Notes: generated by a model not told the origin, from the letters alone. A DNA stretch of 60,083 nt from Anaerolineae bacterium (GCA_034435075.1 DAOTYA010000045.1:1-60083), one strand, 5' to 3'. Positions 11,015 to 28,222 are shown, counted from the stretch's first letter. Numbers and translations are program-made.

Positions 11015-11043
11015 TTGACTAGCATGCCAATCACGGGTATAAT
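11015..11043 (+). promoter_or_regulatory. consensus sigma70-type promoter
   Basis: TTGACT, a 17-nt spacer (agcatgccaatcacggg), then TATAAT. Confidence 0.45.
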
Positions 11044-11114: not shown

Positions 11115-11117
11115 AGA

Positions 11118-11203
11118 GCCTATCCGAAAAACCGTACAAGCGGCATCCCTATGCCGCTTATACCGACGCATAGGGATGCGTCGGTTACGTTTTTCGGATA
11201 GGC
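11118..11203 (-). repeat. CR1 repeat, copy C (inverted orientation)
   Basis: Its reverse complement is identical to copy F. Confidence 0.95.
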
Positions 11204-11290
11204 ACTTAGTCAAATTATTTTTCGCCTTCTGGGCAGTGTTGGCACAGAGGCGATCCGGTTGATCGCCCCAACCGGCGCGAAGCGTCCAAA

Positions 11291-11313
11291 GAGAGCGATT
11301 TCAATCGGCCTGA
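11291..11313 (+). repeat. SR4 motif
   Basis: GAGAGCGATTTCAATCGGCCTGA, preceded by GGCGCGAAG at 11274-11282. Confidence 0.85.
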
Positions 11314-11370
11314 GCACGGCGATTCACACTGTATGTAAGCCAGCAGCCAGGCTTACGCTCTGCAGGCTAT

Positions 11371-11430
11371 AAGAGCCTGATTGTAACCGACGTATCCATA
11401 TGCGTCGGTATAAGCGGCATAGGGATGCCG
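11371..11430 (+). repeat. CR1 degenerate partial copy (both inner hairpins, no outer stem)
   Basis: AAGAGCCTGATTGTAACCGACGTATCCATATGCGTCGGTATAAGCGGCATAGGGATGCCG. Confidence 0.8.
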
Positions 11431-11485
11431 TAGGGTCACAATTACGCTCAACCCGGGTAACCAGACAGCCATCTCCCGGGTTGTA

Positions 11486-12322
11486 TTGGAGGCGAGTATG
11501 GCACTGAAGGGAAACCTCCGAGATTTCAGCACAACACAGCTATTGAATCTGATTAACCTGGCACGCAAGACCGGCACTCTGACCATCGAGTCGAACGGCA
11601 AGCGCTCCCGCCTGTGCTTTAAAGAGGGCAAGCTCATCTACGCGACCCAGGACGAACAGGGGGGACATCTGGCTACCATCCTTCAGCAGGCTGGCAAGCT
11701 TACCGAGGAACAGGCACGTGCCATCCGCACGCGGATGGATATCAAAAGCGATAAGGAATTGGGGCTGCTGTTGATTAACGCCGGTTATGTGAGCCAGGAA
11801 GACATCATCAAAAGTGTCAGGAACTACATCCTGAACAACGTCTATCCCATTTTCACATGGACGGAGGGCACCTTCTACTTTGAAGCGAGCGTGCTACCCT
11901 TCGAAGATCGCATTACCATCCCCATCAATCTGGAAAGTGTGATCATAGAGGGCAGCCGCCGGATGCAGGAATGGGAGAGGCTGCAAGATGAGCTGCCTAA
12001 CCTGGACATGGCGCTCAAATTTGTGGAGCGCCCTGATGCACGGCTGCGGGACATCAGTCTGAGCGTGGAGGAATGGCGTGTGGTATCTTTTATCAACCCA
12101 CGCAACACCATTCGCCAGATCGCCCAGTTCAACAATATGAGCGATTTTCAGATCCGCAAAATCGTGTATGCGCTCTTACAGGCCGGACTGGTGGAGCTGG
12201 TCCAGCCTGAGGGGGTGGCCAGGCCGGCGCCTGGTGTTCCTGCAGAGGCGCCTATTATGCGGCCCCCGGCCGTGAAGCGTAGCGTTGTTGAAAAGATCAT
12301 CGGCTTCCTGCATCAGAGGTAA
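11486..12322 (+). CDS. DUF4388 domain protein
   Basis: N-terminal LKGNLRDFSTTQLLNLINLARKTGTLTIES...KEGKLIYA is the DUF4388 signature. Paired with a small GTPase, as is common for this family. Confidence 0.75.
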   Translation: MEASMALKGNLRDFSTTQLLNLINLARKTGTLTIESNGKRSRLCFKEGKLIYATQDEQGGHLATILQQAGKLTEEQARAIRTRMDIKSDKELGLLLINAGYVSQEDIIKSVRNYILNNVYPIFTWTEGTFYFEASVLPFEDRITIPINLESVIIEGSRRMQEWERLQDELPNLDMALKFVERPDARLRDISLSVEEWRVVSFINPRNTIRQIAQFNNMSDFQIRKIVYALLQAGLVELVQPEGVARPAPGVPAEAPIMRPPAVKRSVVEKIIGFLHQR

Positions 12323-12479
12323 AATCATCGTAACTACCCAGTTCCCCGGCTCGGGCCGGTCTCCAGACCGCGCCCGACGTCGCCACGATGGGAAGTGGAT
12401 GCCGTAATCCGGCCAAATAAACGCCGGGTTGGGTGGCCCGGTCAGAGACCGGCCACAGCCTGGGTAGTTACAAATCATC
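12322..12479. mobile_element. 142-bp MITE with 12-bp TIRs and 8-bp target-site duplication
   Basis: TIRs GTAACTACCCAG (12330-12341) and CTGGGTAGTTAC (12460-12471). Flanking direct repeat AAATCATC (12322-12329 and 12472-12479). The interior carries the SR2 module and the GGCCGGTCTC/GAGACCGGCC inverted pair. Confidence 0.7.
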
Positions 12480-12495
12480 AGAGAGAGACAGGCCA

Positions 12496-13041
12496 ATGCA
12501 GACAGTCAAGATAGTGGTAACCGGCCCCTTCTCGGCGGGCAAAACACAGTTCATTCAGACAATCAGCGAGATAGAGGTCGTGGCGACTGAGAAAAGGATC
12601 TCACGACCGGAGGAGCGGATCAAAGACCAGACTACAGTGGCGATGGATTTTGGGCGCATCAGCGTGGCCGATGATCTGGTGCTCTACCTCTTTGGTACCC
12701 CGGGCCAGCGTCGCTTCGATTTTATGTGGGAGATTCTTGCCGAGGGTATGCTTGGATTTGTTGTCCTTATTGATAGTGTAAAACCGGAAACGTTCCGCGA
12801 GGCCCGGAATATCCTCGACACCTTTCGAGCTTACGCTCCTGTGCCCTATGTCGTCGCCGCCAATAAGCAGGACCTGGAAGACGCCTGGTCGCCCGAGGAT
12901 TTGCGGATCGCCCTGCGTATCCCCAAGGAGGTGAAGGTTATCCCCTGCGTGGCGACCAACCGCGAGAGCGTCAAAAACGTGCTGCTGGAACTTTTATATC
13001 TGGTGCTCGAGCTGATAGACAAAGAGGGTAGGGATGAATGA
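12496..13041 (+). CDS. small Ras-like GTPase (COG2229 / CvnD-MglA-like)
   Basis: Start at MQTVKIVVTGPFSAGKTQF (P-loop), then DFGRI..LFGTPGQRRF (switch II DxxG-like) and AANKQDL (NKxD). Confidence 0.8.
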   Translation: MQTVKIVVTGPFSAGKTQFIQTISEIEVVATEKRISRPEERIKDQTTVAMDFGRISVADDLVLYLFGTPGQRRFDFMWEILAEGMLGFVVLIDSVKPETFREARNILDTFRAYAPVPYVVAANKQDLEDAWSPEDLRIALRIPKEVKVIPCVATNRESVKNVLLELLYLVLELIDKEGRDE

Positions 13042-13090
13042 ATTGTATTAAAGTTCCGACAGAAAACCTGCGTTCTATACCTGGTGGCCC

Positions 13091-13125
13091 GGTCGAACTG
13101 TGATGGTTCGACCTTTGCGTGTTTA
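13091..13125 (+). terminator. intrinsic terminator after the GTPase gene
   Basis: GGTCGAAC-tgtgatg-GTTCGACC followed by TTTGCGTGTTT, in an AT-rich 264-nt spacer. Confidence 0.45.
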
Positions 13126-13305
13126 CTATACTTTAACGCAAATGAAATGGTTTCTAAATCTTTCACTGGTTGCTTCATGATATTATTTTGTTTAGCTCTC
13201 TGGCGCGAGCTGAATCTGACGGAAACCAGACGTATACTGTGATCGGCACCTGGTTGAACATTCAGCTACATCTGATACGGCAAGCATATTGACTGAGAGC
13301 CTGGC

Positions 13306-14097
13306 ATGAGTTCCATCGTCACCGACCGTGGACTGGTTCATTACGAAACTGTTGGCCGAGGACGACCGGTGATCTTGCTCCATGGCTGGCTGGAGTCGTG
13401 GGCGCACTGGCTGGGGACTATGGAATCGCTGAGCCGCGATTATAAGGCCTACGCCCTCGACTTCTGGGGCTTTGGCGAATCGGGGAAACAAAGCGGAAGC
13501 TTCTCGGTAAAGGACTATATCGAGATGGTGGACCAGTTTATGGAACGGCTGGGCATCGAGTATGCCCCTATCATCGGCCACTCGATGGGTGGCACCGTCT
13601 CACTTGGTGTGGCCATGGACCACCCTGGGCGTGTGGAAAAGGTGGCCGTGGTGGGTTCGCCTATTGTTGGTGACGGCCTGGCGCTCTTCCTCCGCCTGGC
13701 AGCACGTCGCTCACTGGCCAGCATTGCCTACCGGATGCCAGGTGCCATCCCTCTGGGGGTGCGGTTGTTCTCGCCCTTCCTGGCACGGGACTGGAAAAGC
13801 TGGTACCAAACTTTCGAGCGCGACCTCTCGCGTACCACTATGGAATCCTTCCATTACAGCATTGCGTCGTTGCGTAGAACAGATTTGCGCCCGCGTTTGA
13901 AGGAGATTAAGGTGCCGGTGCTGGGTATCTATGGCTGTGCAGACCGGATTGTAGACCCTGGCCAGGCTGATGTGTTAGCACAGGCACTCCCAACCTGTCA
14001 GGTTTACAAGTTTGAGGACTCGGGGCATTTCCCGATGGCCGATGAGCCTGAGCGTTTTTATCAGGTGTTAAAGCAGTTCCTGGACAACAACCGCTAG
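13306..14097 (+). CDS. alpha/beta-fold hydrolase (intact Ser-Asp-His)
   Basis: HGWLESW oxyanion region, nucleophile elbow GHSMGG (Ser93, nt 13582-13584), CADRIVD and SGHFPM. Confidence 0.88.
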   Translation: MSSIVTDRGLVHYETVGRGRPVILLHGWLESWAHWLGTMESLSRDYKAYALDFWGFGESGKQSGSFSVKDYIEMVDQFMERLGIEYAPIIGHSMGGTVSLGVAMDHPGRVEKVAVVGSPIVGDGLALFLRLAARRSLASIAYRMPGAIPLGVRLFSPFLARDWKSWYQTFERDLSRTTMESFHYSIASLRRTDLRPRLKEIKVPVLGIYGCADRIVDPGQADVLAQALPTCQVYKFEDSGHFPMADEPERFYQVLKQFLDNNR

Positions 14098-14155
14098 CCG
14101 CAGGACGCAGAACTCAAGACTCAGGACGCAGGGCTCAAGACTTCAGGACTTAGTT

Positions 14156-14788
14156 ATGGATGCTGCCGCCGATCGCCAATACTTCTTCCCTAACAAGATG
14201 GGACGCATCGCCCTTCTGGCGCTGGAAGAAGTAATGGGCCGCAACGGGGTCAATGCCATCCTGAGCCTGGCCCGGCTTCAGCATCGCATAGGCGATTATC
14301 CGCCCAATAACTTCGATAAGGAGGTCCCTTTCGAGGAGATTGGGCGGCTGCTACAAGCTCTTGAGGAGATGTACGGCCCACGTGGAGGGCGTGGACTGGC
14401 CAGAAGGGCCGGGCGTGCCTGCTTCCGATTCGGCGTGCGGGACTTCGGTCCATTGCTGGGGGTGGCTGATGTGGCGTTTCGCCTGCTCCCGGCCGAGATG
14501 AAGCTGCGGGTAGGGTTTGAAGTGCTGGCCCAGACGTTCAACAAGTTTACCGATCATCTGGTGCGTCTGGGAGAGGACGAACAATATTTTCAGTGGATTG
14601 TGGAGCGGTGCGGTGCATGCTGGGGACGTTCCGCCGCTTCCCCCTGCTGCCATCTGACCGTGGGTTTGATTGAGGAGGGGTTGTACTGGATCAGCGGTGG
14701 CAAGAGTTTTTACGTCGAAGAGGTCTCCTGTATCGCTGCTGGCGATCGCTCGTGTACTGTACTGATCGGGAAAAAACCCCTGGATTGA
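14156..14788 (+). CDS. V4R (4-vinyl reductase) domain protein
   Basis: C-terminal CGACWGR..CCHLTVGLIEEGLYW..EEVSCIAAGDRSCTVLI matches the Cys-rich V4R ligand-binding pattern. Confidence 0.7.
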   Translation: MDAAADRQYFFPNKMGRIALLALEEVMGRNGVNAILSLARLQHRIGDYPPNNFDKEVPFEEIGRLLQALEEMYGPRGGRGLARRAGRACFRFGVRDFGPLLGVADVAFRLLPAEMKLRVGFEVLAQTFNKFTDHLVRLGEDEQYFQWIVERCGACWGRSAASPCCHLTVGLIEEGLYWISGGKSFYVEEVSCIAAGDRSCTVLIGKKPLD

Positions 14789-14929
14789 AGTCCAGGGTCA
14801 CACTTCGCCGGGTAAGACCCTCGCATTATTCGTCAGGGACGCCATGGTCCCACAAGGGCCTGCGGGTAGCTATGGAGGACCTTCGAAATTTCCGGGTTTT
14901 TGGCTCCGGCATGTCCGGGTCAGGGAAAG

Positions 14930-16174
14930 ATGCGCAAGATCATTCTGCGAGACCGCACTCCCATATTCCCTTTTAACGAGCCGGCCCGTGAGCTGCGTGT
15001 GCTCAATAAGCCCCTGTGGCTGCACCAGCGCGACCTGTTTGCACGCTACAATGTGGAGGAGAGAGAAGTTGACTCACTGGCCGAGATCAGCAATGACAAA
15101 GTAGAAACCATCGTTTACCGGGACAACCTGTTTTTCGACGAGTTCTTCCTGGACGAGTTCATCAGACGCGCCAGAGCCTCGGGAAAGGCCTGTCGGGTGG
15201 CCTTTTCGCTCAAGGACAAAGCCATCACCACGCATGCCATCTATCTCCAGCGGGGCATCAGGCGGGAAGGGGATGTGTATGTTGCCGACATGTGGTACTA
15301 CCCTCACGGTTTCGAGCCTCATGCCCGCCCCCTGGTGATAGACACCGAGCCTCACGAGATGGGCTACTATCACGTGCCCACTCACATGTCCAATGAACTG
15401 GGTGATCTGGTGTATCAGGTGCCCACCAAAGCATTTTGCTCGATCGAGCACTGGGTACATACGATCATCGCCAACATCATCTTCGGCGTGTACGCCAACG
15501 GCGCCAGGCTGGACATCGAGATCGAACGCAGCCTGAAGAAGAACCTGAAAATATTGTGGCGGGCAATGCTGGAAAGGAAGCAGGTGCTCTCCTCGTCAGA
15601 GGTGGTACATATCGGGCGCAACTGCAGTATTGACCCGTCCGTCATCATCAGGGGGCCGACGTACATCGGCGACAACGTCAGCATTGGCCCTGGCTCAGTG
15701 ATTGATGTGGCCTTCATCGGCGATAATGTCAGCATCGGCACGGGGGCACAGGTTCATCTGAGCGTCGTGTCCGATCGCTGCTTCCTGCCCTTCCGCGCAG
15801 CGCTGTTCACCACCGTAATGATGGCGGATTCGATGGTGGCGCAGAACACATGCCTGCAGTTCTGCAGCATCGGCCGCAACACATTCATTGGGGCCGGCAA
15901 CACCTTCACCGACTTCAACCTGGTCCCAGACAGGCCGATCCGGGCTATGTACGAGGGCAAGCTCCAGGAGACAGGAATGCCAGTATTGGGTGGGTGCGTG
16001 GGCCATAACTGCTACATCGGCTCCGGCATGGTGGTCTACCCGGCCCGGGCCATCGAGTCGAATGTGGTCTTGTTCGCTTCGCCAGAAAGGCGAGTGATTG
16101 ACCGCAACGTATACTACAAAGACAGCGATCATTTCAAGCTAAAAGGATATAAAGCACCCAGGGATGAGCGTTGA
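14930..16174 (+). CDS. left-handed beta-helix (hexapeptide-repeat) protein, GlmU-like putative nucleotidyl/acyl-transferase
   Basis: Hexapeptide run IGRNCSIDPSVIIRGPTYIGDNVSIGPGSVIDVAFIGDNVSIGTGAQV. Start chosen at MRKIILRD (ATG 14930). Confidence 0.65.
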   Translation: MRKIILRDRTPIFPFNEPARELRVLNKPLWLHQRDLFARYNVEEREVDSLAEISNDKVETIVYRDNLFFDEFFLDEFIRRARASGKACRVAFSLKDKAITTHAIYLQRGIRREGDVYVADMWYYPHGFEPHARPLVIDTEPHEMGYYHVPTHMSNELGDLVYQVPTKAFCSIEHWVHTIIANIIFGVYANGARLDIEIERSLKKNLKILWRAMLERKQVLSSSEVVHIGRNCSIDPSVIIRGPTYIGDNVSIGPGSVIDVAFIGDNVSIGTGAQVHLSVVSDRCFLPFRAALFTTVMMADSMVAQNTCLQFCSIGRNTFIGAGNTFTDFNLVPDRPIRAMYEGKLQETGMPVLGGCVGHNCYIGSGMVVYPARAIESNVVLFASPERRVIDRNVYYKDSDHFKLKGYKAPRDER

Positions 16175-17267
16175 GTATACACGTACAGGTGGGCGGGGAA
16201 CAGGCAGTTTTGCATGTGTCATTCATCCGCTCAATCCGAAAACAGATGTGGCTCGCAAGTATCCGTTACTGGCCCGGGTTTTGCCCACGCCGCTGATCCA
16301 TTTTCTGTCCCGCTTCTGGCCGCCGGTTTACCTGTCCCGTATCACGGGGGTGCGCTCGGAGAGCACCGGACGGGAGGTGAGTGGCTGGCTGCTGGCCTGT
16401 CCGTTAACGGCCGGGCAGATGCTGCACCTGCCGCCGCCAGCAGCTTACCGCAAGATTGTGCAGACCGGGCGGCTGGCTCAGAAACTGGGCGCGCGTATTC
16501 TGGGCTTGCTGGCGTTTACCTCCGTCATCGGCGATGGCGGCCTTACCGTCGCCAGACGCCTGAATATGCCGGTGACGACGGGACGTAGTCTGACTATTGC
16601 AGTCGCGCTGGAAGAGCTGAAAGAGGCCGCGCGATGGCAGGGAATATCGCTGGAGCTGGCAACGGTGGCCGTCGTGGGAGCAACCGGGAGCATAGGCCTG
16701 GCCTGCTCCAGACTGCTGGCCCCGGAAGCGGGCGAGTTAATGCTGATCGGGCGTCAGGAATCACGTCTGGCTATGGCAGAGGAAGCGGTCAGGGCTGCCG
16801 GTGCACGGCGGGTGCGCACCGCCACACGTATCGAGGCCGTACAGGAAGCCGACGTCGTGTTCAGCGCAACCAATGCCGCCCGGCCGATCATTCAGCCAGA
16901 GCATCTGAAGCGCGGTGCTGTAGTCTGCGATGTGGCGCTGCCGCCTGATATATCGCCACGCGTGGCAAAGGAAAGAAAAGACGTGCTCGTCATTGAGGGG
17001 GGAGTGATGGATGTGCCGGGCGAGGTGAACTTTGGCTTCAACTTCGGCCTGCCCCCCGGCAAAGCCTACGCCTGTATGGCAGAAACGATGATCCTGGCGC
17101 TCGAGGAGAGATTTGAAAATTACTCCCTTGGCAAAGAGATAGAGGCCGAGCGGGTACGCGAGATCGCCCGCCTGGCCCGTGCGCATGGCTTCAGGTCTAC
17201 CAGGCTTAATGAATTGAGAGAGCTGTCAACTGGCTCATTGTTAAGGAGGGAAAATGGCGGAAGGTAG
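16164..17267 (+). CDS. acyl-ACP reductase (cyanobacterial AAR)-family homologue, often annotated shikimate-dehydrogenase-like
   Basis: Blocks recalled from Synechococcus AAR: FTSVI, ATVAVVGATGSIGLACSRLL (vs ATVAVVGATGDIGSAVCRWL), and YACMAETMILALEE (vs FACFAEAMLLEFEG, catalytic Cys retained) ...AHGF. Overlaps the upstream gene by 11 nt and the downstream gene by 14 nt. Confidence 0.75.
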   Translation: MSVEYTRTGGRGTGSFACVIHPLNPKTDVARKYPLLARVLPTPLIHFLSRFWPPVYLSRITGVRSESTGREVSGWLLACPLTAGQMLHLPPPAAYRKIVQTGRLAQKLGARILGLLAFTSVIGDGGLTVARRLNMPVTTGRSLTIAVALEELKEAARWQGISLELATVAVVGATGSIGLACSRLLAPEAGELMLIGRQESRLAMAEEAVRAAGARRVRTATRIEAVQEADVVFSATNAARPIIQPEHLKRGAVVCDVALPPDISPRVAKERKDVLVIEGGVMDVPGEVNFGFNFGLPPGKAYACMAETMILALEERFENYSLGKEIEAERVREIARLARAHGFRSTRLNELRELSTGSLLRRENGGR

Positions 17268-18120
17268 ATTGATGATCGTCGAAGATGATACTGACATCTC
17301 CAATATGCTGCGCATCTATTTCCAGTCGCAGAATTACGATGTCATCGTGGCACAGCGAGGGGAGGATGCGCTGGAGATGTGTCGGCAGCAGTTGCCCAAT
17401 ATTATCGTGCTCGACATTATGTTGCCGGATATGGACGGCTATGACGTATGCCGCAGATTGCGGGGGAACCTCCGTACCAGCCATATCCCGATCATCTTTC
17501 TGACCCAGAAAGATGAACGTTCCGACAAGATCCACGGCCTTGAGCTGGGCGCCGATGATTACATCACCAAGCCCTTTGACCTCGAGGAATTGAAGCTACG
17601 GGTCAAGAACGCGATGACCCGTGCGCAATATGAAAGCCTGACCAATGCCACCACCGGCCTGCCCAGCGGCCGGCTGATCGAGGACCAGTTGCGTCAGTTG
17701 ATCCGGCGGGATAACTGGGGCATTATATATGTTGGCATTCAGGGCTTCGGTGATTTCAAAGATGAGTATGGCTTCGTGGCCGGCGAAGAGGTTCTGCGCT
17801 TCACAGGGATGGTGCTGGGGAAGGCTGTGGACAGTGAGGGCACCCCCAACGACTTCATCGGCCACATCGGAGGCGACGATTTTATCATCATCGCTGAGAA
17901 GGACCGGGTAGAAGCGATCGTCGAGGATGCCCGCAGGCGTTTTGATGCTGAAATCGGCACCCACTACGACTGGCGGGCACGTCAGAGGGGTGTCAATATG
18001 ATGAGCCTGGCTATAGGTGTGGTGACCTCGGATGACGGGCCGTTTTACGACATCAGAGAGATCACTGAGGCTGCCTCCAGTGCACGCCGTATGGCTACGG
18101 CGGGTGCTCAGGCTGCCTGA
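17254..18120 (+). CDS. response regulator with GGDEF-type output domain (GGDDF variant)
   Basis: REC domain (IVEDD..VLDIMLPDMDG..TQKD..KPF), then a GGDEF fold with signature HIGGDDFIII. Confidence 0.85.
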   Translation: MAEGRLMIVEDDTDISNMLRIYFQSQNYDVIVAQRGEDALEMCRQQLPNIIVLDIMLPDMDGYDVCRRLRGNLRTSHIPIIFLTQKDERSDKIHGLELGADDYITKPFDLEELKLRVKNAMTRAQYESLTNATTGLPSGRLIEDQLRQLIRRDNWGIIYVGIQGFGDFKDEYGFVAGEEVLRFTGMVLGKAVDSEGTPNDFIGHIGGDDFIIIAEKDRVEAIVEDARRRFDAEIGTHYDWRARQRGVNMMSLAIGVVTSDDGPFYDIREITEAASSARRMATAGAQAA

Positions 18121-18162
18121 AGGGAAGACCACGCTCTGGGCGGGGTCGGGTATGTGATTTAG

Positions 18163-21100
18163 ATGGAAGAAACGGAAGGCAACTTGAGAGCCTCTTTCGG
18201 ATCGGACCGGCGTGGAGGTGCAAACATCAGCCCCTTTGAGCTGAGCGCTGATCTGAGGGCTTCGCTCAAGACAACACTGGATACCATTTTAACTACCACC
18301 CGCCAGCTCGTCTACTATGATGTAGCCGAGATCACGCTGTGGGATGAGGAACAGCGCTGTTGCGTAACTCAGGGATGGGGTGGTGACCGCGCTTACGCTA
18401 CGGAGGCAGGCGGTGTTTATCGCATTGACGAGGGCTACACCGGCTGGATCATCCGTCACCAGCGCTTCCTGTTGGTGCGTGATGTGGAGGCCAGGCGGGA
18501 CGTGCGCCCAAAATTGGACCTGCCCACGTATCCTTTCCAGTCTTACGTGGGCATCCCGCTCAAAAGCCAGGGCCGCTTCATTGGTACATTAGAATTGGCC
18601 TGCTATCACAAGGACGCCTGGTCGGAGCGTGACCTGGAGATCCTCCACGCCGTTGCCAGCCAGGCTGTGGTAGCCATTGAAAATGCTTATCTCTATGCAC
18701 AGACAAGGCGACATGCAGAGCAGCAGGCCGGCCTGGCCCGTATCGCTGCTCTGGCTGCCTCCACCCTCGATCTGGATGAGCTGCTTGAGCAGGTAATCGG
18801 AGAGACCCTCAGGCTGCTGGAAGCGGAAAGAGGCGCCCTCCTCCTCTACAACGAACAACGAAGTCGCCTGACGGTCCGTTACCTGACCCCTCCCGATGAC
18901 AAACGCACAGTGCCTTTATCATTTTGCCTTAAGCCCGAGCAATCGCTCCTGGCAAGGAGTGGCAGTTACTTATGCAACAATCCTGCTCAGGACCCGCATA
19001 TCACCGGGGTGTGCCGGGATTATATCCAGGCACTGGGCTTCCATAACTTCGTCGGAGTGGCATTGCGCCTGAAAGAGTCGCTTCTGGGTGAACTATACGT
19101 GGGAGATCGCAGGGGCGGATTTGGTAACCAGGAAGTCCAGTTGCTTCAGACAGTGACCGGTTATATAGCAACCGCCATCGAGAACGCCCATCTCTACGAT
19201 GAGATGCGCCGTCGGGTGTCCGAACTCAGTTCGCTGATGTCTGTCTCGGCTGCCGTCAGTTCCTCGCTGGACCTGGAGCGCGTTTTGCAGGCCATCGCCT
19301 CAGCTACAGTTGAGGTGATAGGATGCCAGCGGTCAGCGATCTTCGTGTTGGATGAAAGCGCGCAGGTGCTACGTCTGGCCATAACACAGGGACTGAGCCA
19401 GGAATATGCAGCCCGGTCGCAGGTACTTCCTCTGGAACCAGGTGGGCGTGCACACGCGGCGGTTACGGGGCAGCCACTGATAGTGCACGATGTGCAGGCT
19501 GATGATAGCCTGTTGGCCTATGCTCCGATGTCCGTCCAGGAGGGTTTCCGTGCCTTCGCCGACCTCCCTCTCAAGCGGGCTGACCGGGTTATTGGTATGC
19601 TTTCCGCCATGTTTGTCGAGCCTCACTACTTCTCCGCACGAGAAGTGGAATTGTTGACAGCTTTTGCCGATCAGGCGGCCATCGCCATAGAAAATGCTCG
19701 TCTGTACGCCCAGGCGGATGAGGAGTTGAGGCATCGAGAGGAAATATTGCGCAGACGCAACCGTGAACTGGCCACGCTCTACGAGGCTGCCAATACAATC
19801 AATTCCAGCCTCTCCCTGGATGATGTGCTCAACAGCGTGGCTTATCAGATGATGCGGTTGCTGAACTCAAAGGGATGCCTGGTCTCGCTGTGGGATCGCC
19901 AGCATAATGTACTTGAGCCTCTGGTAGCATACGGGGCAGCGCGGCCGGAGACGCCGGGTCAGGCCTGTTACCCGGACGTTTCATCACGCTCCGTATTGGA
20001 GACACGCCGCCCGCTGACCGTACGCAGAGATGCCCAGACCGTTTTGCTGCTACCCCTGATCACCAGAAATCAGGTGATTGGGATCGCTGAACTGATTGAT
20101 GGGGGCGAGGCCCGCGCTTACGCCCCAGAGGAGATCCGCCTCGCTGAGAGCCTGGCAGCGCAGGCGGCAGTTGCCATCGAGAACGCCCGTCTCTACGAGC
20201 AGGCTCAGCAGGAAATAGCCGAGCGCACGCGGGCGGAGGAAGCACTGCGGCGGCTTCACAACGTCAGCCGCGAGATCAATGCCACGCTTCATCTGGAAAG
20301 AATCCTACAACTTGTCCTTGAGGAGGCCACACATCTGAGCCAGGCCTCGCATGGCACCATCCTTCTCAGACACTCACCACAAGATGCACTCTACCTGGCG
20401 GTCTGCACAGGATATACGGAGGAAGATAAGGAGCGTCTGAACGCCCTCCTCCAGAAGCCAGAGGCCCATCCTGTCCTGCAAGCGATCTTGCGCTCCCCTG
20501 CTCCGCTGCTTGTCCCGGATACCTCTCTCCAGCCAGAGCGGTGTGGGTTCAGGCCAGAAACCCGCTCCCTGCTGATTGTACCGATATTCTATCAGGACGC
20601 ACTGGCGGGCATGATCTTCCTGGAGAGTGATGAGCAGGGAGCCTTCAACAGGGGCACGCTTGAGTTTGTGGAGGGGCTGGCCGCGCAGGCAGCCACGGCT
20701 ATTGGCAATGCTCAGCGATATCAGGAACAGTTGCAGCGTGGGGAGTTGCTGCGCCGTCGGGCGGAGAGACTGGCGGCTGTGTTGGAGATCAGCCGGGCAC
20801 TGCGTTCTGACCGCCCTCTGGAGAAGATCCTCGAGGAGATCGCATACGCCATTCAAGAGAGTGTGGGGTTCAATCTGGTGCTGATCGGCATTTTAGAAGG
20901 AGACCCTCCCTATCGCAGGCGTGTGGCGGCGGCTGGCGTTCCACTCGCCGAGTTCGAGCGGATGAAGCAGGTCCGTGAGCCCTGGTCAGCACTGGCCGAC
21001 CTGATGACATCCGAGTTCCGTGTCAGTCAGAGCTATTATATCCCTGCCGAGCATCAGGCGCGCTGGCGGGGGCGTATCAGCGTGTATGAAGCACCGCCAG

Positions 21101-23517
21101 AAGGGGAGACGGTCACGAGTGTTTCCCGCCAGCCTGGTCGCTGGCATCCCCACGACCTGCTGCTTGTCCCGCTGATTGGGCCGGGAGGTGACATACAGGG
21201 GCTGCTTTCGGTGGATCAGCCGATTGATGGCCGCGTGCCCGACCTGGAGACTATCGAGGCACTGGAGATCTTTGCCGCTCAGGCTGCCCTGGCCATCGAG
21301 AACGCTCGCCTGGTAGAGGCGCTGGAACGCCGCGCTGAGACGCTGGCCATGTTCAATGAGGTCTCGCGCTCTACCACAACCCATCTCGAGACCGCCAATC
21401 TCGACGACGTGCTCAACTCAGTGGTCAGAATGATCCTGCGGCCGGTCAAAAGCGATCTGAGCACGATCTTTCTGCTGGACCCCGGGAGCGGGAAATATCT
21501 ATGCAGGGCAGCGCATGGCATTACCGGTGGCGAACCATCGTCCACGCTGGAGGAGCTTATCGGTATGGTGGCCAGAAGCGGTATGCCTCTGGCGCTTGAG
21601 GACCTGGAGCGAGACGCCAGGACAGCAACGCCGGGTATGGATGGCATACGTTCGGCAGCCCTGGCTCCCCTCACGGTGAGCCATCAGGTGGTGGGCGTGC
21701 TGTGTGTGGGACGCAGAGCACCTGATCCCTTCTCTCCCGCCGAATTGGGCACACTCTCCGCGCTGGCCGACCAGGTGGCCGTGGCAGTGGCCAATATCAG
21801 ACTTTTCGATGAAGTACGCCGCTTCTCTCAGGAGCTGGAAAGGCGGGTGGAGGAACGCACCCAGGAGTTGGCCCAGGCATTACAGGAACTGCGGAAGGAG
21901 CGGGATCGGGTCGAGATATTGTACCGCATCACCGCGCAGTTGTCGGCCAGCCTTGACCTGGACTACGTGCTGACTCAGGCGCTTGGGCTGGTCGCCGGAG
22001 CGGTGGAGGCAGAACGCGCTTCCGTGCTGATGCTCGCTCACGATTCCGACCGCTTTATCTACCGCGCCTCCTATGGGAACGATACCCGGCTGCCTCCCGG
22101 AGGTCGCCTGACCAACTTTTCACGCGAGGAGGGGCTGGCCGGCTGGGTGGTCAGACATCGCCAGGCCGTCATCATCCCTGATATGCGTGAGGATCAGCGC
22201 TGGGTAAGTTCGTGGGAGGGCGAGCGTGACTACCGCTCGGTGCTGGCTGTGCCGCTTACCATCGGAGAACAGGTGCTGGGGGCACTCTTCCTGTTCCATT
22301 CACAGCCCGGCCATTTTCACGAAGAACACAAAATGTTGGTGGAGACGGCAGCCCTGCAGATGGCCAATGCGATCAATAATGCAGAACTTTACCGCCTCAT
22401 CTTCGATCAGGCCGAGCAACTGGGGAACATGCTCAAGACGCAGAAGGTAGAGGCGGCCAAGAGCCAGGCCATCCTGGAGGCCGTTGCCGATGGAGTGATT
22501 GTTGTGGATGCCAGCGGCAAGATCGTGCTCTTCAACGCAGCAGCGGAGCGCATCCTGGAACTGCCACGAGAAAAAGCGCTGGGCCGCATGAGCAGCGATA
22601 TGCTGGGCCTGTATGGCGGTCAGGCTCGCGAATGGATGGAGGCAGTGAACAGGTGGGCCACCCGGCCAGGCACCTATGACGCTGAGGAATACCTGGCGGC
22701 CAGAGTGGAGATCGGAGGGCGGATCGTCAGCGTCCATCTGGCACCGGTGCTGATGGGCGACGAGTTTCTCGGCACCGTCTCGGTCTTCCGCGATGTCACT
22801 GCTGAGGTGGAGGCCGAGCGGGCTAAGACGGAGTTCGTCTCCACGGTATCCCACGAGCTGCGCACCCCGATGACCTCGATTAAGGGCTACGTAAAACTGC
22901 TCCTGATGGAGATGGCAGGAGGGCTGACGGAGGGGCAACGCCATTTCCTCTCGATCATCAACGCGAACGTGGATCGCCTGACCAACCTGGTCAACGACCT
23001 GCTCGACATTTCACGTATCGAGAGCGGGCGTCTGGCTATCTCCCCGCGCCCGATCAAAGTGGACGAGGTGATCGAGCAGGTTGTCGCAGAAATGCACGCC
23101 CGCGCCACAGGCCGGGGGTTGACGCTCCACGCAGAGCTGCCCCCGGCGCTTCCCAGAGTGGTCGCAGACCCCGATCGGGTGGCTCAAATCCTGACCAACC
23201 TGATAGCCAATGCCTGCAACTACACCCCCAGCGGCGGGGAGGTGTGTGTCATGGCCCATGCGAACGGTGGAGAGGTGCGCGTTGCAGTGCGAGATACCGG
23301 CATCGGCATAGCTCCGGAGAACCTGGATAAGATTTTCGAGCGGTTCTTCCGTGCCGATGATGAGCTGGTACAGGAGGTCCCCGGTACCGGGCTGGGACTG
23401 GCCATCGTCCGTTCGCTGGTGGAGCTGCAGGGAGGTCGTATCTGGGTGGAGAGTAAACCAGGGGCAGGCAGCACCTTCACGTTCACACTTCCCGTTGCCG
23501 GGGAGAGCGGTGTTTGA
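18163..23517 (+). CDS. giant sensor histidine kinase: 8 tandem GAF domains, PAS, HisKA, HATPase_c
   Basis: Eight modules each close with A[IV]xNA.LY-type helices (AIENAYLY, AIENAHLY, AIENARLY x2, AIGNAQRY, AIENARLV, AVANIRLF, AINNAELY). PAS (ILEAVADGVIVVD), H-box SHELRTPMTSIKGY, N/G boxes (NLIANACNYT, DTGIGI, GTGLGLAIV). Confidence 0.93.
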   Translation: MEETEGNLRASFGSDRRGGANISPFELSADLRASLKTTLDTILTTTRQLVYYDVAEITLWDEEQRCCVTQGWGGDRAYATEAGGVYRIDEGYTGWIIRHQRFLLVRDVEARRDVRPKLDLPTYPFQSYVGIPLKSQGRFIGTLELACYHKDAWSERDLEILHAVASQAVVAIENAYLYAQTRRHAEQQAGLARIAALAASTLDLDELLEQVIGETLRLLEAERGALLLYNEQRSRLTVRYLTPPDDKRTVPLSFCLKPEQSLLARSGSYLCNNPAQDPHITGVCRDYIQALGFHNFVGVALRLKESLLGELYVGDRRGGFGNQEVQLLQTVTGYIATAIENAHLYDEMRRRVSELSSLMSVSAAVSSSLDLERVLQAIASATVEVIGCQRSAIFVLDESAQVLRLAITQGLSQEYAARSQVLPLEPGGRAHAAVTGQPLIVHDVQADDSLLAYAPMSVQEGFRAFADLPLKRADRVIGMLSAMFVEPHYFSAREVELLTAFADQAAIAIENARLYAQADEELRHREEILRRRNRELATLYEAANTINSSLSLDDVLNSVAYQMMRLLNSKGCLVSLWDRQHNVLEPLVAYGAARPETPGQACYPDVSSRSVLETRRPLTVRRDAQTVLLLPLITRNQVIGIAELIDGGEARAYAPEEIRLAESLAAQAAVAIENARLYEQAQQEIAERTRAEEALRRLHNVSREINATLHLERILQLVLEEATHLSQASHGTILLRHSPQDALYLAVCTGYTEEDKERLNALLQKPEAHPVLQAILRSPAPLLVPDTSLQPERCGFRPETRSLLIVPIFYQDALAGMIFLESDEQGAFNRGTLEFVEGLAAQAATAIGNAQRYQEQLQRGELLRRRAERLAAVLEISRALRSDRPLEKILEEIAYAIQESVGFNLVLIGILEGDPPYRRRVAAAGVPLAEFERMKQVREPWSALADLMTSEFRVSQSYYIPAEHQARWRGRISVYEAPPEGETVTSVSRQPGRWHPHDLLLVPLIGPGGDIQGLLSVDQPIDGRVPDLETIEALEIFAAQAALAIENARLVEALERRAETLAMFNEVSRSTTTHLETANLDDVLNSVVRMILRPVKSDLSTIFLLDPGSGKYLCRAAHGITGGEPSSTLEELIGMVARSGMPLALEDLERDARTATPGMDGIRSAALAPLTVSHQVVGVLCVGRRAPDPFSPAELGTLSALADQVAVAVANIRLFDEVRRFSQELERRVEERTQELAQALQELRKERDRVEILYRITAQLSASLDLDYVLTQALGLVAGAVEAERASVLMLAHDSDRFIYRASYGNDTRLPPGGRLTNFSREEGLAGWVVRHRQAVIIPDMREDQRWVSSWEGERDYRSVLAVPLTIGEQVLGALFLFHSQPGHFHEEHKMLVETAALQMANAINNAELYRLIFDQAEQLGNMLKTQKVEAAKSQAILEAVADGVIVVDASGKIVLFNAAAERILELPREKALGRMSSDMLGLYGGQAREWMEAVNRWATRPGTYDAEEYLAARVEIGGRIVSVHLAPVLMGDEFLGTVSVFRDVTAEVEAERAKTEFVSTVSHELRTPMTSIKGYVKLLLMEMAGGLTEGQRHFLSIINANVDRLTNLVNDLLDISRIESGRLAISPRPIKVDEVIEQVVAEMHARATGRGLTLHAELPPALPRVVADPDRVAQILTNLIANACNYTPSGGEVCVMAHANGGEVRVAVRDTGIGIAPENLDKIFERFFRADDELVQEVPGTGLGLAIVRSLVELQGGRIWVESKPGAGSTFTFTLPVAGESGV

Positions 23518-23610
23518 ACAGGACGCTTATAAACGGGCAGAGGCGGTAACCTGCCCGGCAGCGGTCGGAGAGCGGGCACTCTGAGCTGGGGCGGGAAGGG
23601 AGATGAAGCG

Positions 23611-24000
23611 ATGTCGCACACACCAAAAATACTTGTGGCTGAGGATGAGAGGGATATCAGAGAGTTGATCGGTTTCACACTTCGTTTTGCCGGCTTCGAT
23701 GTCTTTCTCGCCAGGAACGGCGAAGAAGCCGTTGAGCAGGCACCTCAGTTGAGGCCGGACCTGATTATGCTCGATGTGCGGATGCCTAAGATGACCGGCT
23801 ACGAGGCCTGCCGGGTCTTGAAGAGCAATCCGGAAACAAGCTCAATACCTGTCGTCATCCTTTCCGCCAAGGGGCAGGACGGCGAGATCCAGGAGGGGAT
23901 CGAATCCGGAGCGGACCACTACATTGTAAAGCCCTTCGCGCCGGATGAGCTGACCAGCCGCGTCAGGGAGATCTTGCGCAGCACAGGGGTGCTGGAGTGA
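23611..24000 (+). CDS. stand-alone CheY-like response regulator receiver
   Basis: ILVAEDE..MLDVRMPKMTG..SAKG..KPF; 129 aa with no output domain. Confidence 0.92.
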   Translation: MSHTPKILVAEDERDIRELIGFTLRFAGFDVFLARNGEEAVEQAPQLRPDLIMLDVRMPKMTGYEACRVLKSNPETSSIPVVILSAKGQDGEIQEGIESGADHYIVKPFAPDELTSRVREILRSTGVLE

Positions 24001-24038
24001 ACAAAGTACGCTGAATTTACACTGGCAGCAGATCGGGC

Positions 24039-24824
24039 ATGAGTGCGATTGTCGTAAATGAAGGCCTGATACACTATGAAGCGCTGGGGCGGGGGCGCCC
24101 TGTGATCTTCATCCATGGGTGGCTTGGCTCGTGGCGCTACTGGGTACCGACGATGGAAGAATTGTCGGCCAGACAACGCGCGTATGCCCTCGATCTGTGG
24201 GGCTTCGGTGACTCGGACAAGCCAGGCAAAAACTACAGCGTGGATGCATACGTCAAGTTGCTGCGGGACTTTATGGATAAGCTGGGGGTCGTCCACCCCA
24301 CCCTGGTCGGCCACGGCCTGGGGGGTGTGGTTGTACTGAAGTTCGCCGCCGAAAATCCAGACTGGGTAGACCAGGTGATGGCGGTCAGTGCCCCTCTGGC
24401 CGGGGAAGCTGTCAACCGTCCGCTGGCCGGCTTCTCGGGCAACGGTGATTCACTTGCCAGGCTGATGCCCAGAAAGGCTAAGTTTCCGGAAATTGAGATG
24501 GAGTTGTTCAAGACCGATGTCTCTGCTGTAGCTGAGAGCATCCAGTCGGTTATGTTGAGTGACCTGCGTCCTATATTGCCGCCGCTGACCATTCCTGTAC
24601 TCCTCGTGTACGGCGCTAACGATCCGTTCATCAAACCGCCGGACCCCAAATGGCTCCGCTTCTGCGATGATAATGTGCGCGCCATTTCTCTCGAAGGCGC
24701 GCAGCACTTCCCCATGCTTGAAGAGCGCAACAAGTTCAACCGTCTGTTGAAGGAATTCCTTGAGTCAGGCGGAGACCTGAATTCAATCGAGCTGAAAGAC
24801 GAGTGGCAGCGCCGACTACGCTGA
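24039..24824 (+). CDS. alpha/beta-hydrolase-fold protein lacking the nucleophile Ser (GHGLGG)
   Basis: Paralogue of 13306-14097 (MSAIVVNEGLIHYEALGRGRPVIFIHGWLGSWRYW vs MSSIVTDRGLVHYETVGRGRPVILLHGWLESWAHW). Residue 93 is Gly (GGC, 24315-24317). The Asp (GANDPF) and His (GAQHFPM) positions are retained. Confidence 0.85.
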   Translation: MSAIVVNEGLIHYEALGRGRPVIFIHGWLGSWRYWVPTMEELSARQRAYALDLWGFGDSDKPGKNYSVDAYVKLLRDFMDKLGVVHPTLVGHGLGGVVVLKFAAENPDWVDQVMAVSAPLAGEAVNRPLAGFSGNGDSLARLMPRKAKFPEIEMELFKTDVSAVAESIQSVMLSDLRPILPPLTIPVLLVYGANDPFIKPPDPKWLRFCDDNVRAISLEGAQHFPMLEERNKFNRLLKEFLESGGDLNSIELKDEWQRRLR

Positions 24825-24834
24825 TATTATCAGA

Positions 24835-25020
24835 GCCTATCCGGAAATCGTTTTCGGACAGGTTCTTGTTCAGGCGCTTACTGGAGGGGTGAGGAATGCC
24901 TCGCCCGTACGCCCTTCCTGGGCCTGCAGCCGGTGGTCGGCCTTCTTCACCGACCAGGGGCGTCGGCGCAGGCCGGTGCCCGGCGCGAAGCGCCCAGGGT
25001 GACGATTTCAATCGGCCTGA
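24835..25020 (+). repeat. repeat mosaic: CR1 mini-copy (24835-24862), a shared ~100-nt spacer module and GGCGCGAAG..SR4 (24982-25020)
   Basis: Collinear with the reverse complement of 58161-58300 (for example GAGGAATGCCTCGCCCGTACGCCCTT vs GAGGCATTCCCTGCCCGTACACCCTT). Confidence 0.75.
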
Positions 25021-25058
25021 ATATCACCTGTCACCACACATCAGCCAGGAGTGAGAAA

Positions 25059-28000
25059 ATGATCCACACCATACGCTGGACAGCCGATAAAATCGCCGGG
25101 CGTCTCGCGCTTATCGAGCCTCTGGTATACCGCGAGCGCCACCCCATTCCACCTTTCCGCCACACCAGGCTGGAAAATCCACTGCTCCCTCCTCCGGTTG
25201 GGCCAGAGGTGATAGACGCCGACTGGCCGGTAATCCAACCCAACACATATTGGGGTGAGTGGATGACCGATTTCACGCTCCGCACCTCGTTTCAGGTACC
25301 CGTCGAATGGGAACCTGACCTTCCTGTAGCGCTCTATCTGCCCCTGGGTGAGGCGGGCGATTTCAGCCATCCGGAGTTCCTGGCCTACGTGGACGGCAGG
25401 CCGTATGCCGCCTGTGACCGGCACCACCAGGAGATAATTTTGTCCCCTCAATGGCGTGATGGTCAGCCACACCTCCTTGCCCTGCACGGCTGGACAGGGC
25501 TGGGAGGCCTGCGCTTCGGGGAGCCGGCCCTCAAGTTATTTATGCGCCCGTGTGCAGTTGTTTTGATAGACCAGCCCACCCGTGACTTCATTGCCACCGC
25601 TCGCGTCGCTCTGGGTGTGGCCAATTGCCTGGATGAGCACCATCCGGCTAAAGGACACCTGCTCAATGCCCTCGACGAGGCATTTAAAGTCCTGGATACC
25701 CGTTATCCTTTTGGCCCGTCATTCTATGCCAGCGTGCCCGCAGCCCATGCTGTGCTGAAAGAGGGCATCGCCAGGGCGGGCGCGGCGCTTGATGTGGAAA
25801 TCATTGCCACTGGCCACGCTCACATAGATGTGGCCTGGCTATGGACCCTGGCCCAGACCAGGCGTAAGAGCGGGCGCACTTTCTACAATGTTCTGCGGCT
25901 GATGGAACAATTCCCCGAGTTCCATTACACCCAGAGTCAGGCTCAACTGTACGACTATGTGCGGCAGGATTACCCGGAGCTGTTTGAGGAGATCAAACAA
26001 CGTGTCGCCGAGGGCCGCTGGGAGCCGATCGGCGGGACCTGGGTGGAGATGGATTGTAACGTCAGCGGCGCCGAATCGCTGGCCCGTCAGTTTTTGCTGG
26101 GCCGGACATTTTTCCGCACCCACTTCGGCCCGCAGGCCGAATCGCCTGTGCTATGGCTGCCCGATGTCTTCGGTTACTGCTGGACGCTCCCACAGTTGAT
26201 CAAACAGGCCGGCCTGAAATACTTTATGACCACCAAGATCGGTTGGAACCAGTACAACCGCCTGCCCTATGATACCTTCTGGTGGCAGGGACTTGACGGC
26301 ACCCGGGTCCTGACCCACTTTATCTGCACGCCCGGCGGCGATGGTCACTGGGTCAGCACTTATAACGGCGATGCCTCGCCAGCACAGATCATCGGCACAT
26401 GGAGGACCTTTCAGCAGAAAGAGCTGCATCAGCAGTTGTTGACCTCATTTGGCTACGGCGATGGCGGTGGCGGCCCCACCCGCGAAATGCTGGAAAACCT
26501 GCGGGAGATGAGCAACTTTCCGGCCACGCCGCGCGTGCGACAGGGAGCCGCAGGTGACTTCTTCCGTGAACTGGAGGCTTCCGCCGGGGAACGCCTGCCC
26601 GTCTGGAACGGCGAGCTGTATCTGGAATATCATAGAGGCACATATACCACCCAGAGTCGCAACAAACGGGCCAATCGCAAAAGCGAGTTCCTGCTCCACG
26701 ATGCCGAATTCCTGGCTGCCCTCGCCGCTCTGGTGAACCAGGAGTACACCTACCCTGCTGAGACGCTGCGTAAAGCCTGGGAGCTGGTGTGCCTGAACCA
26801 ATTCCACGACATTCTGCCCGGTAGCAGTATCGGGCCGGTCTACGCCGAATCGCTTCAGCAGTACGCCTGGGTGCAGGAGCAGGCGCGGGCCGTCCGCGAT
26901 GCCGCCTTATCGGCCATCTCCGACAGGATGGGTGGCGACCTGCTCGTCGTCAACCCCACGAGCTTCAGCCGCGACGACCTGGCCTTCTGGCCGGGCCGGT
27001 TGGAGGCGGGACAGGCATTGTCCCTGGCTGATGGGACCCCCGTACCCATCCAGCTTGTTGCGGATGGGACGCTACTGGCAGCCGGTACGCTGTTGCCATA
27101 CAGCGTCACTCCGCTCTTTGTCACGCCAGGTGAAGCTTCGCTGCCGGACACTGGCCTGACGATAACTCCCAATCTGCTGGAAAACTCATATCTGCGGGTG
27201 GAGCTGAACGATGAAGGCGACATCGTGCGCATCCACGATAAGGTCAACCAGCGTGAGGTGCTGCCACCCGGCGCCATCGCCAACCAGTTCCAGGCCTTCG
27301 AGGACCGACCTGTCAGCTTTGATGCCTGGGACATAGATATCTTCTTCGATGACAAAATGTGGCTGGCCGGCCCGGCTGAGTCAGTACAGGTGGTGGAGAG
27401 TGGCCCTCTGCGCGCTACCCTGGAGGTACGGCGCACCATCCTGCACAGCCGGTACGTGCAGCGTATCTCACTCTCCTGGAACAGCCCACGCCTCGACTTC
27501 GAGACCTCTATTGACTGGCAGGAACGTGCCGTGTTGCTCAAAGCCGCCTTTCCGGTGGATATTCTCGCACCGGAGGCCACCTGCGAGATCCAATGGGGAA
27601 ACGTGACGCGTCCCACGCACCGCAATACCAGTTGGGACTGGGCACGTTTTGAGGTGTGCGCCCAGAAGTGGGTGGACCTGAGCGAGGGTGATTACGGCGT
27701 CAGCCTGTTGAATGACTGCAAGTATGGCCATGATGTCCGGGAGAACGTGATCCGCATCACCCTGCTGCGTGGCACCACCCTTCCCGATCCCCAGGCCGAT
27801 TGGGGCGAGCATACCTTTGCCTGCAGCCTGCTCCCCCATGCCGGCGCGTTAGGCGAGACGACGCTCGCTGCCGCCTATGCCCTGAACGACCCCCTGATTG
27901 TGGCACAGGGACGGGGGAGTAAGAAGGGTGTGCCGCTCTCGTTCATATCCACGGACCGCCCAAACGTCATTGTGGAGACCATCAAGCGAGCCGAGGATGG

Positions 28001-28208: not shown

Positions 28209-28222
28209 TCGGTGACTTCAGC

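Follow-up and report, generated by a model that had tools for sequence, protein, structure and literature searches.

A conserved ten-gene block of Anaerolineae points to an undescribed signalling unit assembled from known domain families

Introduction

Ten genes on the plus strand at positions 11486-24824 of a 60,083-nucleotide contig from an Anaerolineae bacterium (GCA_034435075.1, DAOTYA010000045.1:1-60083; this whole stretch is called the window below) keep their order in 80 species-level genomes, and this conserved gene order points to a putative signalling unit that has not been described in the literature searched. The genes, numbered g1 to g10, are predicted to encode a PATAN protein and a small GTPase, a set of enzymes and ligand binders, and a two-component system with a multi-GAF histidine kinase. 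The block represents an undescribed, class-wide conserved cluster assembled from known domain families, which can be likened to clusters combining a kinase and a small GTPase with accessory enzymes. An earlier note, made from the sequence of the window alone, knew of no described system with this composition, and our literature search for the gene combination agrees with it; the sole trace was a table of the genes neighbouring nirS in Anaerolinea thermolimosa.

In anaerobic digesters, sediments and activated sludge, Anaerolineae belong to the most abundant filamentous bacteria, and to our knowledge there is hardly any information on how they control the behaviour of their filaments. The names of the homologues place the organism of the window in Chloroflexota, class Anaerolineae. 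We give about an even chance to the combined statement that the ten genes form one selectively maintained block, typical of Anaerolineae-type Chloroflexota, and that its parts cooperate in the manner proposed below.

Conservation of the gene neighbourhood

For the genome scan, one genome per GTDB species was searched with a profile of g5, the hexapeptide protein, built from 11 sequences. Relatives of g5 were found in at least 575 species-level genomes. The locus statistics are taken from the best 80 of these at least 575 genomes, the loci of which were compared with the ten proteins by tblastn, and the presence of each gene was counted only over loci with enough flanking sequence. All of the best 80 loci belong to Chloroflexota (Anaerolineae/Anaerolineales, Thermoflexales and Caldilineaceae).

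The gene order g1-g10 is kept in 80 species-level genomes at protein identities of 45-85%, and the block is still intact where the identities drop to 45-60%. The neighbourhood, whose conservation the earlier note had named as the first thing to check, is thus clearly conserved beyond the genome in which it was noticed. The PATAN and GTPase genes were present throughout (g1 in 60/60 and g2 in 68/68 loci), g3 occurred in 68/72, g4 in 67/77, g6 in 61/70 and g7 in 64/68 loci. The complete set g1-g7 was found in 40/53 loci and all nine non-kinase genes in 26/32. An altered order was seen in one of 82 loci (L085), in which the V4R gene has moved to a place just after g10, still inside the block. The flanks are variable: the top upstream family (RecN-like) occurs in 19/52 loci and the top downstream family (amidase-like) in 13/22. 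Likewise, two homologues of g6, the protein resembling acyl-ACP reductase (AAR), at 69-73% identity, lie on contigs that carry all ten genes in the same order behind other upstream genes. Co-orientation on one strand is by itself weak evidence of linkage; however, since the order is conserved across 80 species-level genomes with variable flanks, there is real evidence beyond chance.

One of the loci (L007, QMZE01000099.1) is a 5-kb contig in a metagenome-assembled genome of Archaeoglobales that bears g1-g5, which are 71-83% identical to those of the window; almost certainly it stems from Chloroflexota and was mis-binned.

Layout of the block

An open reading frame (ORF) check found all ten plus-strand ORFs at the coordinates given in the note, and their domain list is borne out by Pfam and NCBIfam. 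The ten genes are co-directional as described, and the run to which they belong is longer, comprising thirteen genes at 9931-29492. Its outer three genes encode a NUDIX-GNAT protein (from 9931), a GH38 mannosidase and a GT87-like protein (to 29492). Gene calls and alignment of orthologues replace the TTG at 11486 by the ATG at 11498 as start of g1, and orthologue alignment likewise moves the starts of g2 and g5 to the ATG codons at 12496 and 14930; judged from these comparisons, the revised starts are probably right.

The two reported overlaps, 11 nucleotides (nt) at 16164-16174 and 14 nt at 17254-17267, were both found and join g5 to g6 and g6 to g7. The g5/g6 overlap is common in the orthologues (median about -11 nt, n=64 loci), and the median intergenic gaps determined over the loci are 4, 116, 34, 18, -11, 31 and 25 nt. 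Among the defence-system models of PADLOC, components of the block matched only generic REC-domain entries, and membership in an anti-phage defence system was dropped as an idea.

The encoded proteins

The first gene, g1 (11498..12322, + strand), encodes a PATAN protein (PatA_N/DUF4388, Pfam PF14332, 104 bits) with a winged-helix-like region in its C-terminal third. The two independent matches to this region, of the MarR/CymR helix-turn-helix type, are weak (Pfam HTH_9 with E 0.003; MarR-family structure 7kua with E 0.004 in the PDB profile search), and a winged-helix tail is probable on these profile scores. Binding of cyclic di-GMP (c-di-GMP) by g1 through an MshEN-like motif was considered and rejected: the NCBIfam score reaches 23 bits versus a cut-off of 38, the stretch is the protein's least conserved one, and it lacks the key Arg. 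The neighbouring g2 (12496..13041, +) is an MglA/Arf-like small GTPase with Pfam matches to ATP_bind_1, Arf and Ras; among solved structures, Arf-type GTPases and MglA come closest to it. Its P-loop (GPFxxGKT), G3 motif FGTPGQ and G4 motif NKQD are intact in 74/74 sequences; g2 is predicted to be a working GTPase. No Roadblock match was detected by Pfam in any of the ten proteins as a sign of an MglB-like partner, and no small Roadblock-like ORF is conserved over the loci in the gap between g2 and g3. Gene neighbourhoods of PATAN proteins have reportedly been treated by Makarova in 2006 and by Wuichet and Sogaard-Andersen in 2014.

Two genes of the block encode alpha/beta hydrolases. The Ser-Asp-His triad is intact in g3 (13306..14097, +; Abhydrolase_1, 105 bits), where the nucleophile motif GHSMGG is kept in 73/73 orthologues and the Asp and His are conserved, and from this constancy we predict a working hydrolase. 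Its paralogue g10 (24039..24824, +), 37% identical to g3 and also matching Abhydrolase_1, reads GHGLGG at this place, in line with the earlier report that its nucleophile Ser is replaced by Gly. Over 44 sequences the nucleophile position holds Gly in 26, Ala in 13, Thr in 3 and Ser in 2, and the His and Asp are retained. Since the nucleophile is lost in 42/44 sequences, its loss looks, on the alignment, like an old and maintained trait of this pseudo-hydrolase, which fits a binding or adaptor role. A C-terminal tail LELK(D/E)EWQRRLR is conserved as well. When g10 is compared with solved structures, its 60 best relatives are epoxide hydrolases, arylesterases, lactonases and dehalogenases; RsbQ, D14 and KAI2 are not named among these 60. 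An analogy with the bacteriochlorophyll pair BchO/BchJ, suggested by the hydrolase together with the V4R protein, was dropped, as the BchO model gave 51 bits versus its cut-off of 172 and no pigment genes lie nearby.

The product of g4 (14156..14788, +) is a V4R-type protein. The Pfam V4R match (E 2e-5, 24.9 bits) stays under the gathering score of 31, and in the PDB profile search g4 matches only the V4R proteins MopR, PoxR and MJ1460, at weak E values of 0.04-0.17. Its Cys cluster follows a CxxC...C...C pattern, in which C152, C155, C165, C192 and C200 vary little or not at all. TRAPPC3/Bet3 is a palmitate-binding core subunit of TRAPP, the eukaryotic Rab exchange factor. Proteins of the V4R/TRAPPC3 fold hold hydrophobic ligands, and Zn sites are described in V4R and TRAPPC3 proteins, according to an excerpt of PMC10933270.

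The gene g5 (14930..16174, +) encodes a two-domain GlmU/ST0452-like protein with Hexapep and left-handed beta-helix (LbH) Pfam matches. An AlphaFold2 model calculated from a 66-sequence alignment reached a pLDDT of 95, and its top Foldseek match over the full length is Sulfolobus ST0452 (5z0a; E 1e-13, TM score 0.63), a sugar-1-phosphate nucleotidylyltransferase/acetyltransferase, followed by GMPPA/GMPPB, VTC1 and GlmU. The model suggests a divergent nucleotidyltransferase (NT)-like N-terminal half and a left-handed beta-helix as C-terminal half. Pfam gave no match to the NTP_transferase signatures PF00483 or PF12804 at E 0.01 or better, and the N-terminal half presumably lacks the GxGTR loop, judged by eye. 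The HMMER alignment to GlmU ends before His363, the catalytic His of the acetyltransferase half, and a GH motif elsewhere in the beta-helix is conserved in 82/83 sequences. The family is small: a 50%-identity library contains 53 clusters that reach E 1e-30 or better. Relatives with 27-29% identity have GT2 glycosyltransferases and alkaline-phosphatase-type phosphodiesterases as neighbours or fusion partners, and one relative with 34-36% identity is found among radical-SAM enzymes and methyltransferases. The GlmU/ST0452/GMPP-like fold and the pairing of relatives with glycosyltransferases weaken a purely lipid reading of the block; they point to sugar-linked chemistry, or to a GMPPA-like pseudo-enzyme that would sense nucleotide sugars.

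A natural fusion of 813 amino acids (aa), consisting of a GT2 glycosyltransferase and a g5-like NT/LbH protein, is encoded at L090:8001-10442 (P0191). It adjoins phosphodiesterase and radical-SAM genes, and a PAS histidine kinase gene lies directly upstream. The window itself contains a GT2 gene (Glyco_tranf_2_3/GT21-like) at 7264-8145 (+), approximately 3 kb upstream of the block with opposite-strand genes between them, which is of the same type as the partners of the distant g5 relatives.

The overlapping gene g6 (16164..17267, +) belongs to the AAR/PigE family of thioester reductases, and the AAR homology reported before holds up. The NCBIfam scores (PigE N-terminal 220 bits with a cut-off of 850, TIGR04058 104 bits with a cut-off of 449.7) are both below the equivalog level; the PDB matches 4ppm (1e-37) and 6jzq (2e-22) align approximately 290 residues to PigE and AAR. 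The Cys of the motif ACMAET (A/G-C-x-A-E) is found in 65/65 sequences, the GxxGxxG motif for NAD(P) is conserved, and g6 is therefore predicted to be a working NAD(P)-dependent acyl-thioester reductase of this family. AAR and PigE's N-terminal domain reduce acyl thioesters to aldehydes, as stated in an excerpt of PMC8341465. The public NCBI records name orthologues of g5 "multidrug transporter" and orthologues of g6 "shikimate dehydrogenase"; both names look wrong because of the g5 fold and the g6 family matches.

The two-component part comprises two receivers and a kinase. The response regulator g7 (17254..18120, +) consists of REC and a degenerate GGDEF domain with the motif GGDDF. Over 67 sequences the fourth position of this motif is Asp in 57, Asn in 7 and Lys in 2, never Glu; the metal-binding Asp with which the DxDxFK segment begins, located by alignment to solved cyclases, is Gly in 62/67 and Asp in 1/67; and the Arg of the inhibitory RxxD I-site, which lies five residues ahead of the motif and serves degenerate c-di-GMP receptors as well, is replaced by Thr in 55, Gly in 6, Ala in 3 and Ser in 2, never being Arg. 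Since the cyclase and I-site residues are lost, g7 is not expected to work as a diguanylate cyclase, nor as a c-di-GMP receptor of the I-site type. The c-di-GMP output that had been assigned to it is thus not supported, and on these alignments neither is c-di-GMP as an input of the block. More probably, g7 is a phospho-switch whose output domain is not a cyclase. In the REC domains of g7 and of g9 (23611..24000, +), a stand-alone receiver (Pfam Response_reg, 103 bits), the phospho-acceptor Asp is kept, and Pfam detected no DNA-binding output domain in either of them. The gene g8 (18163..23517, +) encodes a cytoplasmic histidine kinase of 1784 aa with 8 GAF domains, PAS, HisKA and HATPase according to Pfam; no strongly hydrophobic stretch of 19 residues occurs in residues 1-1412, the part that was scanned. 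Kinases of the g8 type were seen with lengths of 1103, 1372, 1784 and >2988 aa, and the number of GAF domains is very plastic. The longest of them, a GAF-array kinase of at least 2988 aa in the position of g8 (L091:5553-13328), runs off its contig.

Promoter-like elements and hairpins

A conserved non-coding element at 13091..13186 (+) became visible in the g2-g3 gap when 14 close relatives were aligned. It contains a hairpin with the arms GGTCGAAC and GTTCGACC, a conserved box at 13131-13159 and an extended -10 element, TGATATTAT. In most close relatives the box includes a GAAAC-N7-GTTTC inverted repeat; this repeat is degenerate in the window. The element is clade-specific, as the length of the g2-g3 gap varies between 6 and 681 nt when all loci are considered. 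By its sequence features, it is probably an internal regulated promoter for g3 onward, and possibly a candidate operator that the winged-helix tail of g1 would target.

Upstream of g1, a sigma-70-like promoter candidate (TTGACT-17-TATAAT, 11015..11043, +) shows 11/12 consensus matches; it is a match to the sigma-70 consensus only and is followed by hairpins resembling repetitive extragenic palindromes (REP). Approximately 100 nt past this candidate lies a very stable double hairpin with a U-run (fold z-score -7.2); promoter candidate and double hairpin together (window 11015-11200) could represent a small non-coding RNA gene, or nothing more than REP hairpins. Seven copies of a 22-nt palindromic hairpin, AAGCGGCATCCCTATGCCGCTT, are present in the window versus 0 copies expected (2152-2173, 8238-8259, 11138-11159, 11412-11433, 28248-28269, 41117-41138 and 58352-58373). 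Upstream of g1, two composite copies make up an inverted repeat of 48 nt (11141-11188 and 11383-11430), the arms of which are 96% complementary and separated by 194 nt; we rejected it as a special regulatory structure because it is built from this dispersed REP-like hairpin. Rfam gave no match at E 0.1 or better over 9000-26000, i.e. no riboswitch or known RNA in the gaps.

Proposed mechanism

The ten genes can be arranged in three modules. Module A would consist of the PATAN protein g1 and the MglA-like GTPase g2; module B would be a small-molecule set of the hydrolase g3, the ligand binder g4, the GlmU/ST0452-like protein g5 and the thioester reductase g6; and module C would combine the multi-GAF kinase g8 with the receivers g7 and g9 and the adaptor g10. 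In the proposed mechanism, the kinase g8 would phosphorylate g7 and g9, which would act by protein contact, because neither of them has a DNA-binding or catalytic output. We propose that g7 acts on the g5/g6 pair, since it is translationally coupled to this pair and linked to it in the deepest lineages, and that g9 acts on the PATAN/GTPase pair g1/g2, since regulators of the PatA type are PATAN fused to REC. The type IV pilus motor of Synechocystis is a binding target of PATAN-REC regulators, according to the title of bioRxiv 10.1101/2021.06.11.447907. The enzymes g3, g5 and g6 may synthesize or turn over a metabolite linked to an acyl group or a sugar; g4 and g10, as non-catalytic binders, would hold this metabolite and feed back on the kinase or the GTPase. 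The output would lie in the control of filament polarity, filament motility or an envelope process and not in c-di-GMP synthesis. We consider this framework of three modules, including its mechanism, about evenly poised between right and wrong, and any particular direction of signal flow within it is much less probable than that.

Several points weigh against such a cooperation of the modules. First of all, every functional link rests on gene order, and all 80 loci come from one phylum, so that shared ancestry contributes to the synteny. Moreover, the modules can separate. The Thermoflexus loci carry g1-g2-g3-g5-g6 followed by unrelated genes, with no match to the V4R gene and without the kinase half. 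The gene table for the cultured Anaerolinea thermolimosa, as given in an excerpt of PMC8756737, lists DUF4388, GTPase, an MhpC-type hydrolase and "glmU" directly before nirS, which suggests a locus truncated like that of Thermoflexus, with the kinase half absent. None of g3, g4 and g6 is indispensable, since each is absent in some loci (4/72, 10/77 and 9/70, respectively). The promoter-like element in the g2-g3 gap implies that g1-g2 and g3-g10 are probably separate transcripts in its clade. Furthermore, the V4R assignment of g4 rests on sub-threshold scores, and g5, with no NTP_transferase match in Pfam, may be a pseudo-enzyme.

Alternative explanations

The best surviving alternative is that separate operons are merely juxtaposed, namely a polarity pair g1-g2, an envelope or glycolipid set g3-g6 and an ordinary two-component system g7-g10 that includes an accessory protein, which would have stayed neighbours mainly through vertical inheritance within one class. 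The truncated Thermoflexus loci, the internal promoter-like element and the restriction of all loci to one phylum are consistent with it. The same holds for locus L091, in which g5 is only 44% identical and g5, g6, REC-GGDEF and the GAF kinase of >2988 aa occur without g1-g4, and for the distant g5 relatives, which are found in biosynthetic contexts (GT2, phosphodiesterases, radical-SAM) without signalling genes. However, unlinked operons would hardly stay together where the flanks shift and the identities fall to 45-60%, nor would the relocated V4R gene of L085 be expected to remain within the block. The deepest linkage is that of g5-g6-g7-g8. The g5/g6 pair, which stands alone on a further contig, appears as a hub because it occurs with the GTPase side or with the kinase side; its tie to either side also speaks against mere juxtaposition, as does the fact that g6 and g7 overlap or abut across the supposed boundary, which the paralogues g3 and g10 span as well. 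We therefore regard juxtaposed operons as rather unlikely.

Another possibility is that kinase and receivers switch g3-g6 for the remodelling of envelope lipids or glycolipids, the product being structural and g4 and g10 serving as carriers or chaperones. Translational coupling of g5-g6-g7, receivers without DNA-binding output, g5 relatives fused or adjacent to GT2 glycosyltransferases, and envelope and sugar-nucleotide genes nearby in the window and in relatives would all suit such a biosynthetic operon. But it leaves the invariant PATAN/GTPase pair (60/60 and 68/68 loci) unexplained, as well as the presence of enzymes and GTPase without the kinase in Thermoflexus, and no membrane protein or exporter is encoded in the block. 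Hence, we judge it distinctly unlikely.

A self-contained pathway, in which g3, g5 and g6 make an acyl-derived intracellular ligand, the V4R protein and g10 hold this ligand and gate the GTPase and the kinase, respectively, and a split PatA (the PATAN protein plus the stand-alone REC) joins both branches for polarity or movement of the filament, is a speculative and very improbable reading. Least probable of all is the first reading, in which a fatty-aldehyde signal made by the AAR homologue is sensed by the V4R protein, the pseudo-hydrolase or the GAF domains with c-di-GMP and the GTPase as outputs: the AAR/PigE family membership of g6 with its kept catalytic Cys, the presence of hydrophobic-ligand binders and the conserved neighbourhood agree with it, but the GGDEF domain is without metal Asp, Glu and I-site in essentially all 67 orthologues, the MshEN-like stretch of g1 is below threshold in a poorly conserved region, g6 is absent from 9/70 loci with no aldehyde-consuming partner (ADO) among the ten genes, and g5 and its relatives indicate sugar chemistry.

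If the modules do cooperate as in the framework preferred here, the block would be the first example in bacteria in which metabolite-binding pseudo-enzymes connect a small-GTPase/PATAN switch to a phosphorelay, and it would give a role to the large AAR/PigE-like family that is now labelled "shikimate dehydrogenase". The pairing of working enzymes with conserved dead copies, i.e. the hydrolase pair and the degenerate GGDEF domain, offers a testable entry point.

Other features of the window

The remaining window content consists of housekeeping genes and genes of sugar-nucleotide metabolism. A MutS protein of 1238 aa, encoded at 35937-39653 (-), is split by an intein carrying a LAGLIDADG homing-endonuclease domain (Pfam Intein_splicing and LAGLIDADG_3). 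For two long ORFs, at 2281-4167 (-, 628 aa) and 50149-53052 (+, 967 aa), Pfam gave nothing at E 1e-5 or better.

Comparison with known systems

Single components of the block resemble those of well-known proteins. In g7 the order REC then GGDEF and the conserved acceptor Asp are as in PleD and WspR, but its metal Asp is changed to Gly, position 4 of the motif is never Glu and the RxxD site is absent. The C-terminal Cys cluster of g4 resembles the Zn site of PoxR/TRAPPC3-like proteins. The full-length two-domain architecture of g5, an NT-like domain followed by a left-handed beta-helix, is shared with GlmU/ST0452 and with their regulatory pseudo-enzyme relatives GMPPA and eIF2B gamma/epsilon, whereas, in contrast to GlmU/ST0452, its N-terminal half has no NTP_transferase Pfam match. 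Different from AAR and PigE, g6 has neither an ADO partner nor a fused aminotransferase among the ten genes according to Pfam, its neighbour being the NT/LbH protein.

A small protein of the alpha/beta-hydrolase fold that is encoded beside a signalling protein is also known from RsbQ-RsbP, D14/KAI2 and GID1, and by this analogy a ligand-binding or adaptor role for a hydrolase-fold protein of the block appears plausible. RsbQ, D14 and KAI2 retain a working triad. In contrast, g10 lacks the nucleophile, and g3 has the triad but is situated far from the kinase. The coexistence of the active paralogue g3 in the same block sets it apart from all of these systems, including GID1.

The MglA systems of Myxococcus and Thermus share with the block the intact G1, G3 and G4 motifs of the GTPase and the PATAN gene directly upstream. 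An MglA-type GTPase gene with a PATAN gene beside it is a known arrangement, namely for MglA groups 1 and 5, as stated in an excerpt of PMC4316618. However, the ten genes include no MglB/Roadblock partner, the PATAN protein g1 has a winged-helix-like tail in place of REC, and the pair sits within a block of enzymes and a kinase, which is not reported for MglA.

The actinobacterial conservon consists of the kinase CvnA, the Roadblock protein CvnB, the DUF742 protein CvnC and the GTPase CvnD, often together with a P450 (excerpt of PMC4316618). The block has no Roadblock and no DUF742 protein, so that only the kinase and GTPase types are matched; its kinase is a soluble multi-GAF protein whereas that of the conservon is membrane-bound; it has two receivers; and its accessory proteins are hydrolases, a V4R protein, an NT/LbH protein and a thioester reductase. 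Nevertheless, in both cases a histidine kinase, a GTPase of the ATP_bind_1 type and an accessory enzyme are encoded in one conserved cluster, as far as the excerpt of PMC4316618 describes the conservon, which is the nearest composite known system.

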